Positions 32,798 to 45,778 of a DNA stretch of 64,000 nucleotides are shown in pieces. Location: contig JAXLYE010000005.1 in NCBI GenBank assembly GCA_046351595.1, forward strand, positions 788,735 to 852,734. The letters are read 5' to 3'. The position numbers and the translations under genes were made by a program. Source of the stretch: Polyangia bacterium. Lineage in GTDB: Bacteria; Myxococcota_A; Polyangia; Palsa-1104; JAEUJZ01. Positions within the stretch are counted from its first letter, which is position 1. Each line of letters opens with the position of its first letter. The notes under the pieces are model-generated. The model did no database searches. It was not told the origin of the DNA and was given only the letters and a program-made list of their open reading frames with translations.

Positions 32798-33190
32798 ATG
32801 GTACGGATCGCGAGCTACACCCTCGTGGATCGGATCCACGATGGGGCTGAGACCTGCATCTACCGCGCTGTCCGCGATGCGGATCGCCTGCCCGTCATCC
32901 TGAAGACCCCGAACGTCCCGTATCCCAGCCGGCGTCAGCTCGCGCGCCTGCAGCACGAGTACGCGATGCTGAAGAAGGCGGGCGGCCGGGGCGCGGTCCT
33001 GCCCATCGAGCTGATCCAGACCGCGGACGTCGTGGCGCTGGTCACCGAGGACTGGGGCGGCCAGACGCTGCACAGCCTGATCGCAGCCGGCGCCCTGGGC
33101 TGGCGCGAGGCCGCAACCCTGGGCCTGCACATCGCCGACGCGCTGGCCGCGCTGCATGACCAGGGCATCCTGCACAAGGATCTCAAGCCG
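32798..33190 (+). pseudogene. N-terminal kinase-like domain of a large multidomain sensor. It is interrupted after ...ILHKDLKPQ.
   Basis: Y.L...I......IYRAVRDADRLPVILK...HKDLKPQ is the N-terminal pseudokinase/kinase module of kinase-AAA-GAF-HisKA proteins. The ORF then degenerates into Arg-rich sequence. The continuation is found at about 40759. Confidence 0.65.
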
Positions 33191-33278
33191 CAGGCGGTCG
33201 CCGCTCGCTGTCTCCGTCGGGGCAGCGGGCGGGGGGCGGTAGGGCGGAGCGGCTGCGGACGGTTTGTGCGGGGCGCCG

Positions 33279-40758: not shown

Positions 40759-43700
40759 CGGCGAGAGCGACCTCAAGCCGCAGAACATCCTGGTGCGCAG
40801 CGCCAGCACCCGCGAGCCGGATCGCAGCGCGGTCCGGCTCATCGATCTGGGCATCTCGGCGCCGCTGCTGCGCGAGAGCGCAGGCCGGGCGGTGACGCAG
40901 GTCGAGGGCACGCTGGCCTACATGGCGCCCGAGCAGACCGGCCGCATCAACCGCCAGGTCGACACGCGTACGGATCTGTACGCGCTCGGGGTCACGGTGT
41001 ATCAGTCGCTCACCGGCGAGCTGCCGTTCTCCTCGTCGGATCCGCTGGAGCTCATCCACGCCCACATCGCGCGCCCGCCACGGCCTGTGGACGAGGTCTG
41101 CCCGACGGTGCCGCGCGCGCTCGCCGCCATCGTCGGCAAGCTGCTGGCGAAGGAGGCGGACGCCCGCTACCAGAGCGCGCGCGGGCTGCGCGCCGATCTC
41201 GCCCGCTGTCTCGAGGCGGCCGGCGCCGAGCAGGAGTTTCCGCTCGGCACGGACGATCACGCCGGCGAGCTGCGGGTGCCGCAGCGGCTCTACGGGCGTG
41301 ACGGCGAGCTCGCTGCGCTGCGCGAGTCGCTCCAGCGCGTGCAGCGCGGCGCGACCGAGGTGGTGCTGATCGGCGGCTACGCCGGCGTCGGCAAGTCGGC
41401 GCTGGTCAAGGAGCTGGGCCGCACCGTCGCCGCGAGCGGCGGCCTGCTCTTGTCCGGCAAGTTCGAGCTGCTCGGTCGCAGCACGCCGTACCTGGCGCTC
41501 TCGCGCGCCTTCCGCGAACTCGTGCCCGAGCTCCTCGGGCTCAGCGCCGCGGCGCTGCAGCTGTGGCGCCAGGAGCTCTTGCAGGCGGTCGGGCGCAGCG
41601 GCCAGCTGCTCGTCGATCGCGTCCCCGAGCTCGAGCGCGTGCTCGGGCCGCAGCCGCCGGTCGCGACGGGCAGCGCCGCGGACGCGCAGGTCCGCTTCCA
41701 CCTCTTGATGCAGGACTTCGTCCGCGCGGTGGCGCAGCGCGCGCACCCGCTGGTGCTGTTCATCGACGACCTGCAGTGGGCGGACGCGGCCTCGCTGGCG
41801 CTGCTGCGGACGCTGCTGGCCGAGGGCGAGTGCGGGCACCTTCTGTTCATCGGTGCGTACCGCGACAACGAGCCCGGCGCGGTCGAGCTGCTCGCGCCGC
41901 TGCTGTGCGCGGTCAAGGACCGCGGCGTGCCCCTGCACAACAGGACGCTGCCGCCGCTCTTGCGTGAGCACACCGTGGCGCTGCTCGCGGACGCGCTGGC
42001 GCAGCCGCCCTCGACGATCGAGCCGCTGGCGCAGCGGGTGCACGACAAGACCCAGGGCAACCCGTTCTTCGTCAACCAGCTGCTCGCCTACCTGCAGCGC
42101 GAGCAGCTCCTGCGCTGGGACGCGGTGCACGGCGCGTGGAGCTGGGACCTGGCCGGCATCGACGGCCTGCACGTCACCGACAACGTCGCCGACTTCATGC
42201 TGGCGCAGCTCGCGGCGCTGCCGGCGCCGACCCGTGACACGCTCTCGATCGCGGCCTGCATCGGCGGGCTCGTGCCGCTGCGCACCCTCGCGACGGTGTG
42301 CGAGCGGCAGCCGGTCGAGGTGGCGGCGGCGCTGTGGCCGGCGGTGCGCCTGGGCGTGCTGCTGCCGGACAGCAGCGACTACCGCCTGCTGCACAGCCTG
42401 GAGCAGCTCGGCGCCGACACCGCGGGCGCCGACTTCGACCTCTGCTACCGCTTCCTGCACGACCGGCTGCAGCAGGCCGCCTACTCGCTGGTGACGACGG
42501 AGCAGCAGCAGGCGATCCACCTGCGCATCGCGCGCCTGTTGCGCGCGCACACGAGCCCCGAGTCCTTCGCGCACGACGATCAGGCGCTGTTCGAGATCGT
42601 CGATCACTTCAACATCGCGCGCGCGCAGATCAGCGACCCGATCGAGCGGCGCGAGCTCGCTCGGCTCGACCTGCTCGCGGGCCAGCGCGCCAAGCGGGCC
42701 GCCGCCTACAGCGTCGCCGTCGGCTACCTGACCGTTGGGTACGGGCTGACCGCACCGACGGACGCGGACGAGGGCGGCGCGCTGTGGGCGGACCTGGCCG
42801 CGGCGCTGGCCGAGTGCGCGGGCCTGGCTGGCGACGCCGAGCGCGCGGAGTCGCTCTTGCGCGAGCTGCTCGGCCGCGTGACCGAGCTTGTGCGCCGCGT
42901 GCACGCGCACTGGCTGCGCGTCGGCCTGTACAATACGCTCGGGCGCGTGCTCGACGCCATCGCCGCCGGCATCGAGGCGCTGGCCGAGCTCGGGGAGGTA
43001 CTGCCGGCCGACCCCGCGCAGTACTACCCCGCGATGCTCGCGGAGCTCGCGCGCGTGCCGGTGCTGCTCGGAAACCGCCGGGTCGCCGAGCTCGTACACG
43101 CGCCGCCGCTGACCGAGCCGCGCAAGGCCGCGGCGCTGACGATCCTGCTCGAGCTCGGAGCGCCCGCGTACACCGCGCACCCGCTGCTGTTCGCGCTGGT
43201 CGTGCTCAAGCAGGTGAACCTGTCGCTGGAGTACGGCAACACCGCGGCGTCGGTCTATGGCTACGTCGGCTACGGCGTGCTGGCCGCGGGCGCGCTCGGG
43301 CAGTACCAGGTCGGCGACGAGTTCAGCCGGCTCGCGCTCGCGCTCTCCGAGCAGAGCGGCAGCTCGCACCTGCAGTGCCGCGTGCAGTTCGGCGCGGGCC
43401 TGATCCTGAACTTCCGCCGCCCGCTGCGCGAGGCGCTGCCGTACTACGAGCGCGCGCACCGCACCGGCATGGAGGTCGGCGACAGCGCGTACGCCTCGTA
43501 CTCGCTGTTCCACCTCGTCGTCGCCCGGCTCAGCCTGGGCGACGAGCTCGAGTCCGTGGCCGCGGACATCGAGCGCTACCTGGCGCTGGCGGCGCGCACC
43601 AAGGAGATCATCACCCTCACGTACCTTTCGATCTCGCAGCAGCTCGTGCGCGCGCTCGCCGGACAGACCAGCGCCCCGGGCTCGCTGCGCAGCGCCAGCT

Positions 43701-45778
43701 TCGACGAGCAGCAGCTCCTCGCATCGCTCGACCGGGTCGAGCTGCAGCACGCGCGCTACTACTACCACCTGGTGCGCGCGCAGCTCGGCTACCTGTTCGC
43801 GGATGTGCCGGGGGCGCTCGCCGCGGTGCGCGCGGCCGAGCCGCTGGTGCAGACCGCGGCCGGCTTCTACCACGCCACCGAGCTGCCTTTTTACGCTGCG
43901 CTTACGCTGCTCGCCGCGTCCGAGACCGCGCCTGCGGCCGAGCGCTCCGTGCTGCTCGAGCAGGCCGCGCGCTACGAGGCGCAGCTCGGGCTGTGGGCGA
44001 TCGAGTGCGCCGCCAACTATGAGCACAAGCACCTTCTGGTCGCGGCCGAGCAGGCACGCGTGACCGGCCGCGAGCTCGACGCGCTGTCGCTGTACGAGCG
44101 CGCGATCGAGTCCGCGCACCGCGGCGAGTGGCGGCAGCACGAGGCGCTCGCCAACGAGCTGTGCGCGATGTTCCACATAAGCCGTGGTCGCAAGAAGGCC
44201 GCGCGCGTCTACCTGTTGGACGCGCACTACGGCTACCACCGCTGGGGCGCGACCGCGAAGGCGCAGCGGCTGGTGGAGCTCCACCCGCAAGTGTTCACGC
44301 GCGGGCCGGTCACCCTCTCGGCGCACGGCACGACGATGACCACCTCGACGACGGGGGCGCAGCTCGGGCTGCTGGACACGATGACGCTCATCAAGGCGTC
44401 GCAGGCGCTGTCGGGCGAGATCTCGCTGGACCGCCTGCTGCTGCGCCTGATGGATCTCATCGCCGAGAGCGCGGGCGCTCAGCGGGCGGCTCTTCTTCTG
44501 ATCAAGGACAAGGACGGTGCGCTGCAGCTCGCGGCCGAGCTGTCACCGCAGCGCGGGCCGCTTCTGCACACGCCGCCACAGCCGCTGGATGACCACGCCG
44601 AGCTGCCGCACTCCGTGGTCCGCTACGTCGTGCGCAGCCACGAGCCGGTCGTCCTCGGTTCGCTCACGGCGGCGCGTTTTGCGGCCGATCCGTATCTATC
44701 GCGCGCAAACCCGCTGTCGCTGGCGGCGCTGCCGCTCGTCTTGCAGGGGCAGCCGCGCGGCGTGCTGTACCTGGAGAACTCGCTGCAGTCCGGCGTGTTC
44801 GGCGAGGAGCGCCTGCGCGTGCTCGGCGTGCTGTGCGCGCAGGTCGCGATCTCGATCGAGAACGCGACGCTGTACTCCGGCCTGGAGCGCCTGGTCGAGG
44901 AGCGCACGCGCGAGCTGCGCGCGGCCCAGGCGCGCCTGGTGCGGCTGCAGCGCGAGACCACGGAGGCGCAGCTCGCGGGCGGCTTCGCGCACGAGATCCG
45001 CAACGCGCTGAGCGGCGCCAAGATGCTGCTCAGCCGCGTCTACGAGGCCGCACGCCCGGAGCGCGCCGCGCACAGCGTCTGCATCGAAACCAGCGAGCGC
45101 ATGGAGTCGCTGTTCCTGCTGGTGCGTGACTCGCTGCCCAAGGAGCTGCAGCGGCCGGTCGCGGCGCTCCTGCGCCAGGCCAACCGCAGCGAGGAGCAGC
45201 TGCACACCATCCTCGGCGACCTCGATGATGCGCTGGCGCGCGCGCTGTCGATCACGCAGACCATCCTCAACTACGCGCGCGTGGGGCAGGAGCTGCGCGG
45301 CAGCGAGGACGTGCAGCTCGCGACCCAGATCGAGACCGTGCTCAAGGAGTCCGCCGACACCTGCGCCGCCCGCGGCGTCTCCGTGCTCTGCGACATCGCG
45401 CCGTCGCTGCGCCTGCGCGCCAAGCCCGGCCACATCTACTCGATCTTCAAGAACCTGTTCATCAACGCGCTGGACGCGATCGCGGATCGACCGGCGCAGG
45501 ACCGCGCCGCGATCAGCGTGTGCGGCGCCGCTGCGGCCGGGCTGATCCGGGTCGAGCTCAGCGACACCGGGGTCGGCATCCCGGCGGCCATGCTGCCGCG
45601 CATCTTCGACCCCTTCTTCACCACCAAGCCCAGCACCGGCACCGGCCTGGGCCTGGGCATCGTGCGCAAGCTGGTCGAGCTCTACGGCGGCGAGATCAGC
45701 TGCTCCAGCACCGAAGGCGCCGGCACGACGTTCACCGTCACGTTCCCGGAGCCGGCAGCGGCCGTCGACGCGGGCTGA
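40759..45778 (+). pseudogene. 3' portion of the multidomain sensor: kinase C-lobe, AAA ATPase, TPR, GAF, HisKA and HATPase_c histidine kinase. It resumes at DLKPQNILV.
   Basis: It resumes with DLKPQNILV...LIDLGIS...LAYMAPEQ. Then Walker A (IGGYAGVGKSALV), TPR-like helices, a GAF region, an H-box (FAHEIRNALSGAKMLL) and N/G1/G2 boxes (NLFINALDAI, DTGVGI, GTGLGLGIVRKLVELYGGEI). The largest antisense ORF (1296 aa) is an artefact. Confidence 0.8.

Follow-up and report, generated by a model that had tools for sequence, protein, structure and literature searches.

We analyzed a 64,000-nt stretch of DNA (hereafter, the window) from a Polyangia bacterium (GenBank assembly GCA_046351595.1, contig JAXLYE010000005.1, positions 788,735 to 852,734) in which two Ser/Thr kinase genes, kinase A and kinase B, are each interrupted within the codons of the catalytic-loop motif HRDLKPxN. 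Kinase A is divided by a 7,578-bp insert, T, and kinase B, which lies inside T, is itself divided by a 924-bp insert, E, at the same codon of the motif. We interpret T and E as two related, non-autonomous, site-specific intervening elements that are nested at the conserved kinase motif D-(L/I)-K-P-x|N, and we place the probability of this interpretation at about 0.55. The resulting gene pieces are referred to below as A_N and A_C for kinase A and as B_N and B_C for kinase B.

The N-lobe half of kinase A, A_N (32798..33193, plus strand), lies 8 bp downstream of a response-regulator gene (32286..32789, plus strand; Pfam Response_reg, 1.4e-18), matches positions 1-127 of the Pkinase profile and ends with ...ILHKDLKPQ. 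An initial annotation of this DNA had ended the module at 33190, which needs correcting, as the Q codon ends at 33193 and the open reading frame (ORF) continues to a stop at 33325. The C-terminal part, A_C (40769..45778, plus strand), starts DLKPQNILV and carries Pfam matches to Pkinase (123-253), AAA_16, GAF, HisKA (weak) and HATPase_c, with helical repeats after AAA_16; the protein annotated in the metagenome-assembled genome (MAG), P0001 (1677 aa), is 100% identical to this downstream ORF. The central proposal of the initial annotation, namely that a multidomain kinase/histidine-kinase gene had been split at HKDLKPQ|N by a 7.6-kb insert with 12-bp direct repeats at both junctions, was borne out. 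The repeat, CTCAAGCCGCAG, is located at 33182..33193 and 40772..40783 (both plus strand), reads L-K-P-Q in the frame of the kinase in both copies, and encloses the 7,578 bp of T (33194..40771). It has two exact copies in the window compared with ~0.10 expected, and 0 of 100 shuffles reached two.

An intact orthologue of kinase A, the 1810-aa protein P0002, is encoded on an activated-sludge contig (L001) and reads LHKDVKPQNILVRA without a break. Since A_N and A_C both match this one orthologue at similar identity (62.5% and 65.5%, respectively), they are halves of one gene, and the possibility that they are unrelated paralogues is excluded. A response regulator is also present directly upstream of intact A in L001, at a distance of 8 bp, and is 71% identical to that of the window; the L001 locus serves as an empty site for T. 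When A_N and A_C are joined, they align end to end with P0002 at 65% identity and 99% coverage, and only then is the full domain order Pkinase-AAA_16-helical repeats-GAF-HisKA-HATPase_c found in one polypeptide. Reconstructed A thus has the domain order of the trifunctional Ser/Thr kinase/AAA ATPase/sensor histidine kinase family, from whose intact members it differs by being in two pieces. A scan of JGI metagenomes with A for closer empty sites or split copies returned only paralogues at ≤44% identity, all of them intact. As a separate observation, A reads IDLGIS, and most of its distant relatives from soil metagenomes (loci L098-L177) read HKD(I/L/V)KP...GFG(I/F/L)AS instead of DFG; these relatives are without the metal-binding Asp and have the look of pseudokinase modules.

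The second kinase-AAA-TPR gene that the initial annotation had placed in the insert is present, but it is itself split. Kinase B is found in two pieces on the minus strand, 924 bp apart, and neither this nested split nor the PD-(D/E)XK gene within it (38767..39396, plus strand) had been listed. B_N, the N-lobe half (39512..39976), covers Pkinase 4-127 and ends with ...RAGIIHRDIKPS, while B_C, the C-terminal part (34963..38586), starts with PSNLFLRNGQ...VLDFG straight after a stop codon and contains Pkinase 139-253, AAA_16 and a helical-repeat region. Insert E (38589..39512) is bounded by a 7-bp direct repeat, AGCCGAG, at 38582..38588 on the B_C side and at 39513..39519 on the B_N side (both minus strand); extending this repeat gives 11 matches in 14 positions (GACAGTTAGCCGAG versus GACATCAAGCCGAG). 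The intact B orthologue, P0217 (L016), is 61% identical to B (60% for B_C and 66% for B_N), reads AGIIHRDLKPSNLFLRGG, and has neighbours that differ from those of B in the window. Reconstructed B retains all of the catalytic motifs (GxGxxG, VAVK, HRD, DFG and APE) and the full domain order of PknK-like kinase-AAA-TPR proteins, the difference again being that B is here in two pieces.

The two genes are broken at equivalent positions. The break in A follows ...CTC AAG CCG CAG and that in B follows ...ATC AAG CCG AG(T), such that both are cut after the "x" codon of HRDLKPxN at positions agreeing within one nucleotide, and position 127 of the Pkinase profile is the last one matched by both N-terminal parts. 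In a 4.1-kb gene, another insertion at random would fall within 3 nt of the homologous position with a chance of ~0.002. The nested split at an identical codon changes the picture, because it turns what would have been one accident into a site-specific phenomenon. Joining the pieces in silico across the repeats yields HKDLKPQNILV for A and HRDIKPSNLFL for B, where the orthologues have HKDVKPQNILV (P0002) and HRDLKPSNLFL (P0217). In-silico excision predicts the restored junctions ...CTGCACAAGGATCTCAAGCCGCAGAACATCCTGGTG... for A and ...CACCGCGACATCAAGCCGAGCAACCTGTTCCTG... for B, together with the circular junctions ...GGCGAGAGCGAC-CTCAAGCCGCAG-GCGGTCGCCGCT... for T and ...GGCGGACAGTT-AGCCGAG-TACGGTCGAGG... 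for E.

All four junctions recur in independent assemblies. One Logan contig (L189, run SRR26348423) matches window positions 30714-34288 at 99.97% and covers the left junction of A, and a second (L188) matches 38559-39542 at 100% and covers both B junctions. The ENA contig L002, which comes from a different sample and a ~90%-identical sister lineage, is colinear with 36880-42614 at 87-95% nucleotide identity and has identical B_C, B_N and A_C junctions. The ENA protein P0337 is the A_N read-through ORF of the sister lineage and has the same HKDLKPQ|AV... junction. In the sister lineage, three junctions are thus observed at the DNA level and the A_N junction at the protein level. Since the junctions are common to both lineages, the nested arrangement predates their split, which corresponds to a synonymous divergence (dS) of ~0.1.

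The ends of T and E have an 11-nt motif in common, GCGGAMGGTTT, which occurs four times in the 64 kb compared with 0.04 expected, with every copy lying ≤75 nt from an end of T or E. In T, one copy is at 33255 (plus strand), 62 nt inside the left end, and the other is at 40706 (minus strand), 56 nt inside the right end and pointing inward. These two copies (GCGGACGGTTT at 33255-33265 and GCGGAAGGTTT at 40706-40716) form the core of a 31-nt subterminal inverted repeat, whose left arm, GGAGCGGCTGCGGACGGTTTGTGCGGGGCGC, spans 33246..33276 (plus strand) and whose right arm spans 40696..40726 (minus strand), with 25 of 31 positions matching (p ~0.005). In E, the copies at 38619 (minus strand) and 38649 (plus strand), ~33-63 nt from the B_C-side end, are the arms of a hairpin located 31-75 nt inside the element (38617..38661), in which two inverted copies of GCGGACGGTTTG form 13-bp stems (GCAAACCGTCCGC/GCGGACGGTTTGC) around a 19-nt loop; with a z of -2.3, it is the sole standout among hairpins at the insert ends. 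The 12-mer GCGGACGGTTTG has no occurrence in 176 other loci (~2.5 Mb) and was found only in the orthologous contig L002.

Thus, three of the four insert ends, namely both ends of T and the B_C-side end of E, bear the 11-nt motif. Consistent with a relationship between the ends, a BLAST search of the window with the 97 nt inside the left end of T gave, as its best non-self match, a 16-nt exact match in the B_C-side end of E (E-value = 0.002), and both inserts begin with RCGGTCG..GC.CG when read in the kinase sense. The sister lineage keeps these motifs amid diverging surroundings: in L002 the hairpin has a rewritten loop between identical stems, the tail of P0337 retains GRSGCGRF (the T-left motif), and the T-right copy differs at the degenerate position only. 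The relatedness of the ends is based on the short motif and the 31-nt inverted repeat, not on overall homology of the flanks. On these end motifs, the assignment of T and E to a single element family is well supported but not proven.

We measured selection on the fragments as the ratio of nonsynonymous to synonymous substitution rates (dN/dS; Nei-Gojobori) relative to the sister-lineage contig L002, with p values from a binomial test against neutrality; out-of-frame controls gave ~1.9. The kinase remnant of A_C had a dN/dS of 0.20 (p = 0.0014) and the rest of A_C 0.31 (p = 3e-6); the corresponding values for B_C were 0.25 (p = 0.035) and 0.37 (p = 1e-5), and B_N had a dN/dS of 0.35 (p = 0.012). 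The indels in the fragments were all multiples of three (15, 15, 9, -9 and -12), including in-frame 9-bp indels in B_N, whereas those in the non-coding flanks were 1, 2, 4, 18, 23 and 54 nt long. Nucleotide identity to L002 was 94-95% for the kinase fragments, 90-91% for the intact exonuclease and membrane-protein genes of the inserts, and 77-88% for non-coding DNA. A_N differed from P0337 at 2 of 132 residues (98.5% identity) in contrast with 14 of 36 in the read-through tail past the Q codon (Fisher p = 3.6e-9), and neither A_N nor B_N has a conserved read-through tail.

Taken together, these substitution and indel patterns show that all four kinase fragments are under purifying selection. 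The initial annotation had described the sensor gene as inactivated or split; it is split, but simple inactivation is unsupported, since the fragments are conserved, have dN/dS values of 0.20-0.37 and carry in-frame indels only. As the cause of this constraint, we would favour occasional precise excision that restores the kinases, with a separate function of the fragments as the second candidate and recombination with intact alleles in the population as the third.

For the nested, site-specific elements that we propose, insertion would have occurred by site-specific (att-type) recombination, with a recombinase encoded elsewhere and supplied in trans. Attachment would take place at a core formed by the conserved kinase motif, with the GCGGAMGGTTT motifs near the ends as putative protein-binding sites. 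Each insert is bounded by a short direct repeat taken from the kinase motif, and the difference in repeat length (12 versus 7 bp) may reflect the extent to which the core of the element matched its target. The arrangement is inherited, as it is common to the sister lineage (~90% identical). Insertion of the att type fits best because of the combination of the same codon in paralogues, unequal repeats derived from the motif, inverted subterminal sites, the lack of a mobility gene, vertical inheritance and constrained gene halves. Reversible excision would be plausible. A more specific version, which we offer tentatively and consider possible rather than probable, is that T and E represent an undescribed, recombinase-less class of element for which the conserved HRDLKPxN-coding sequence of Ser/Thr kinases would be a multi-copy attachment site, and that a recombinase acting in trans would recognise the GCGGAMGGTTT sites and excise the elements precisely and in nested order, so that intact A and B would be regained in a subset of cells or at a particular stage.

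Other kinds of element were considered and dropped. A DDE transposon or miniature inverted-repeat transposable element does not match the 12- and 7-bp repeats, the subterminal position of the inverted repeats (45-83 nt inside) and the weak likeness of the termini; a transposase with a fixed stagger fits poorly because of these unequal repeats and poor termini. A self-splicing intron or intein was rejected on the basis of an empty Rfam E-value scan of 32000-46500, which gave no intron, the stop codon before PSNLFL, the antisense genes and the non-conserved tails. For an integron cassette, the hairpin cores of E (GGCAAAC / GTTTGCC) fit 5 of 7 positions of RYYYAAC / GTTRRRY, and there is no integrase.

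Several observations weigh against T and E being site-specific elements of one family. The end of E beside B_N has only a degenerate copy of the motif (GCGGAACGG), and the overall similarity of the flanks is weak, with anchored global alignments giving p = 0.13 (A5-B5) and p = 0.02 (A3-B3). A regex screen of 2.55 Mb of loci found 94 HRDxKP motifs and no split instance beyond A and B, and copies of the element number only the two nested ones in the 64 kb, with none more in 2.5 Mb of related loci. When viral contigs were scanned twice for the end patterns, the outcome was either nothing or chance matches outside kinases. No recombinase is present in T, E or the rest of the window, except for an integrase in an unrelated island (see below). 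Homologues of the cargo genes are found in ordinary, unrelated contexts, and neither cargo gene marks a recognisable mobile family. In addition, the A_C homologue in L002 (6210-6720) stops matching after ...FEIVDHF, at ~codon 615, and is followed by unrelated sequence, a stop and a glycerol-kinase-like (glpK-like) N-terminus. Either A is truncated further in this lineage, or the contig, at ~4x coverage, contains a chimeric join; if it is not chimeric, A looks dispensable in the L002 lineage.

Such a further truncation would also fit a different history, in which A and B were destroyed by two unrelated illegitimate insertions (captured by non-homologous end joining, or transposed), leaving pseudogene fragments, with position and motif shared by coincidence. 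In favour of this history, the inserts have native GC and ordinary cargo genes and neither a recombinase nor a transposase, and the repeats are of unequal length (12 versus 7 bp). Likewise, no excised form or restored-junction protein was seen among database matches, although this is a weak negative only. However, fossil insertions would have to reach the same codon by a chance of ~0.002 and to share, confined to the element ends, an 11-nt motif found four times where 0.04 is expected. The selection data also speak against them: dN/dS values of 0.2-0.37 (binomial p from 0.035 to 3e-6), coding indels that are all in frame, fragments conserved above the intact genes of the insert, and 2 of 132 changes in A_N against 14 of 36 in its tail (p = 3.6e-9). 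We consider this history unlikely.

The constraint itself would be explained if the split were stable and the pieces were functional alone, with A_C acting as an AAA-GAF-histidine kinase, B_C as a STAND-like ATPase and the N-lobes as small regulators or non-covalent complements. The non-kinase parts are complete domains, and T supplies a co-oriented gene 100 bp upstream of A_C, with which A_C is possibly co-transcribed. However, the C-lobe remnants and isolated N-lobes are no less constrained than the other parts (dN/dS 0.20, 0.25 and 0.35, and 98.5% amino acid identity for A_N), although a half kinase domain split in the catalytic loop is not known to have any activity. Furthermore, neither a canonical start codon nor an evident promoter is present at the break for B_C or A_C, for which the MAG annotation requires CTG starts (as inferred from the lengths of P0001 and P0216), and the tails read through beyond A_N and B_N show no conservation. 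A promoter and terminator scan upstream of A_C found nothing, and such a scan is uninformative for myxobacteria. A stable, functional split is therefore about as improbable, in our estimation, as two fossil insertions.

Constraint could also be mimicked if intact and interrupted alleles coexisted, or if an intact paralogue existed, and homologous recombination or gene conversion refreshed the flanks. Such a presence/absence polymorphism has the merit of explaining the constraint without excision machinery, and one genome per lineage was sampled. Against it, 5.8 billion clusters contained no protein >65% identical to A or >61% identical to B, their own fragments aside, and the polymorphism would need to have lasted in two lineages that are a dS of ~0.1 apart; we regard it as still less likely than the preceding two alternatives. 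Finally, errors of assembly or binning, or ectopic exchange among kinase paralogues within the conserved motif, might be suspected because the source is a MAG and many kinase paralogues in the genome share the motif, but they are scarcely credible given that the same junctions recur in independent Logan contigs (L188 and L189) and in sequences from another lineage (L002 and P0337), that 12 bp is too short to mislead an assembler, and that the DNA beside every break is non-kinase with no paralogue fused in frame, on which ground paralogue-crossover, inversion and template-switch models were dropped.

The elements that we propose resemble known intervening elements only in part. Elements in heterocyst genes (nifD, fdxN and hupL, with XisA, XisF and XisC) and the skin and SPbeta elements in sigK and spsM are grouped under "regulated gene integrity" (PMC7192596, PMC4874684, PMC4191935). 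These elements encode a site-specific recombinase within the element, and the length of the direct repeat varies at one site in recombinase-excised elements (PMC4874684). T and E are like the nifD and skin type in that a coding sequence is interrupted, flanking short direct repeats would restore the ORF by recombination (in silico, for both A and B), the gene halves are conserved across lineages, repeat length is variable at one site and the host is a multicellular, developmentally differentiating bacterium. They are unlike it in that they encode no recombinase, the defining feature of all known cases, have an excision that is predicted rather than observed, are nested at an identical codon of two paralogues, and carry ordinary host-like genes as cargo, a second target gene included. 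Because an element-encoded recombinase is missing, we do not file T and E as members of this type.

T and E can also be compared with cis-mobilizable elements (CIMEs), which are decayed integrative elements that keep attL and attR and have lost their integrase and transfer genes (PMC5704250). The likeness lies in the att-like direct repeats (the att nature of the ends of T and E being inferred), the lack of integrase and transfer genes and the need for a recombinase in trans. By contrast, genome and metagenome scans gave no close relatives, no related autonomous element with the same attachment site was identified, and CIMEs usually reside, without disruption, at the 3' end of tRNA or housekeeping genes, whereas T and E are located in the catalytic loop of kinases from a multi-copy family. 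With inteins, group I and II introns and homing-endonuclease elements, T and E share insertion at the most conserved active-site motif and, in the smaller insert, a nuclease gene. They differ in that no Rfam intron is present and that stop codons and antisense genes exclude an intein; unlike the nuclease of a homing element, that of E is an MGME1/Cas4-like exonuclease whose homologues are not kinase-associated.

To our knowledge, excisable interrupted genes are known from few systems (heterocyst nif and hup, sporulation sigK and spsM, comK and mutL), always with their own recombinase. In the literature searched, neither attachment sites in kinase catalytic loops nor programmed rearrangements in myxobacteria were described. 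What appears new here is the combination of recombinase-less, nested inserts that target a catalytic-loop motif belonging to a multi-copy family of kinases. If the inserts excise, programmed or reversible gene reconstitution would be extended to myxobacteria, as the first regulated gene integrity in a myxobacterium and one acting on signalling kinases, and the conserved motif of a large paralogous family could be a dispersed set of attachment sites. Should they not excise, some other reason has to be found for the half-kinase fragments being so strongly conserved.

The remaining contents of the inserts are host-like. The GC content of T is 71-79%, similar to that of the host (~72%). As the initial annotation had stated, T carries a gene for a PhoD-like phosphatase (33279..34706, minus strand; Pfam PhoD 1.4e-48, PhoD_N, TAT_signal) and one for a small hydrophobic membrane protein of 128 aa (40285..40671, plus strand), in addition to split kinase B with E. 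It was likewise correct that the insert is without a recombinase or transposase: Pfam, NCBIfam and PHROG scans of every coding-like ORF of 33194-40771 revealed none in T or E, and no room is left for one. PhoD orthologues at 84% and 75% amino acid identity lie in unrelated contexts, with nucleotide homology ending at the ends of the ORF; a donor locus for T was sought and dropped, given these contexts and the different neighbours of the intact B orthologue. The membrane-protein gene is co-oriented with A_C, 100 bp upstream of it, and has no family match in the Pfam, NCBIfam and PHROG scans. Between this gene and the divergent B_N lies a tandem array (40079..40177), whose period had been given as 12 bp and is instead 11 bp, in nine copies (GCCGATGCGCC). 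The copy number of the array is unstable, as L002 from the sister lineage has no array. The array is placed where promoters for B and for the membrane-protein and A_C genes would be.

The cargo of E, antisense to B, encodes a 209-aa MGME1/Cas4-like PD-(D/E)XK exonuclease, with matches to PDDEXK_1, a cas4 model (1.6e-7, below cut-off), phrog_298 exonuclease (3.9e-30) and MGME1 in the PDB (5e-11). Its homologues at 50-66% identity (L003-L015 and L190) have no kinase fragments beside them. A role for this gene as a kinase-targeting homing nuclease was ruled out on that basis and on the MGME1/Cas4-like character of the protein. Within E, L002 has ~165-190 bp of extra sequence upstream of the exonuclease gene (L002 ~2150-2340; window 38678-38700) that is lacking in the window. 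The dS of the exonuclease gene itself (window 38767-39396 versus L002 2404-3033) is 0.26, ~2-fold that of the flanking kinase fragments (0.06-0.13), so that E may have a history different from that of its host gene, or the exonuclease may be under weaker codon-bias constraint.

A third kinase gene in the window, kinase C, is also split (4450-5184 and 28309-29064), in this case by a 23,124-bp insert (5185-28308). The break is at subdomain IX (...DLYALGVVLYE | LYEMLTAVRPF) and is accompanied by a 9-bp direct repeat, CTGTACGAG. This island has a foreign GC content of 62-69% and a tyrosine integrase gene at its right end (26937-28226), and its cargo comprises a McrB-like AAA protein, McrBC, a CHAT-TPR protein, a GH43 enzyme, a LysR regulator and an isochorismatase. 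Like T and E, the island interrupts a kinase gene of this genome within a conserved kinase motif and comes with a short direct repeat; unlike them, it has its own integrase, foreign GC and different ends, with no GCGGAMGGTTT. The kinase C island thus indicates that site-specific elements landing in kinase motifs occur in this genome.

No tRNA genes are present in the 64-kb window. At its end (~61700-64000), GC content falls from ~70% to 44-50%, which suggests another foreign segment. The window contains two ADYC-domain proteins (1060-2322, minus strand, and 55614-56711, plus strand) and a PolX-PHP polymerase gene (53442-55454). It also contains at least six Ser/Thr kinase genes, namely those at 3-1214, 4450-, 29119-31422 and 56740-60855 together with A and B, and the kinase at 56740-60855 additionally has nSTAND1 and FGE-sulfatase domains.

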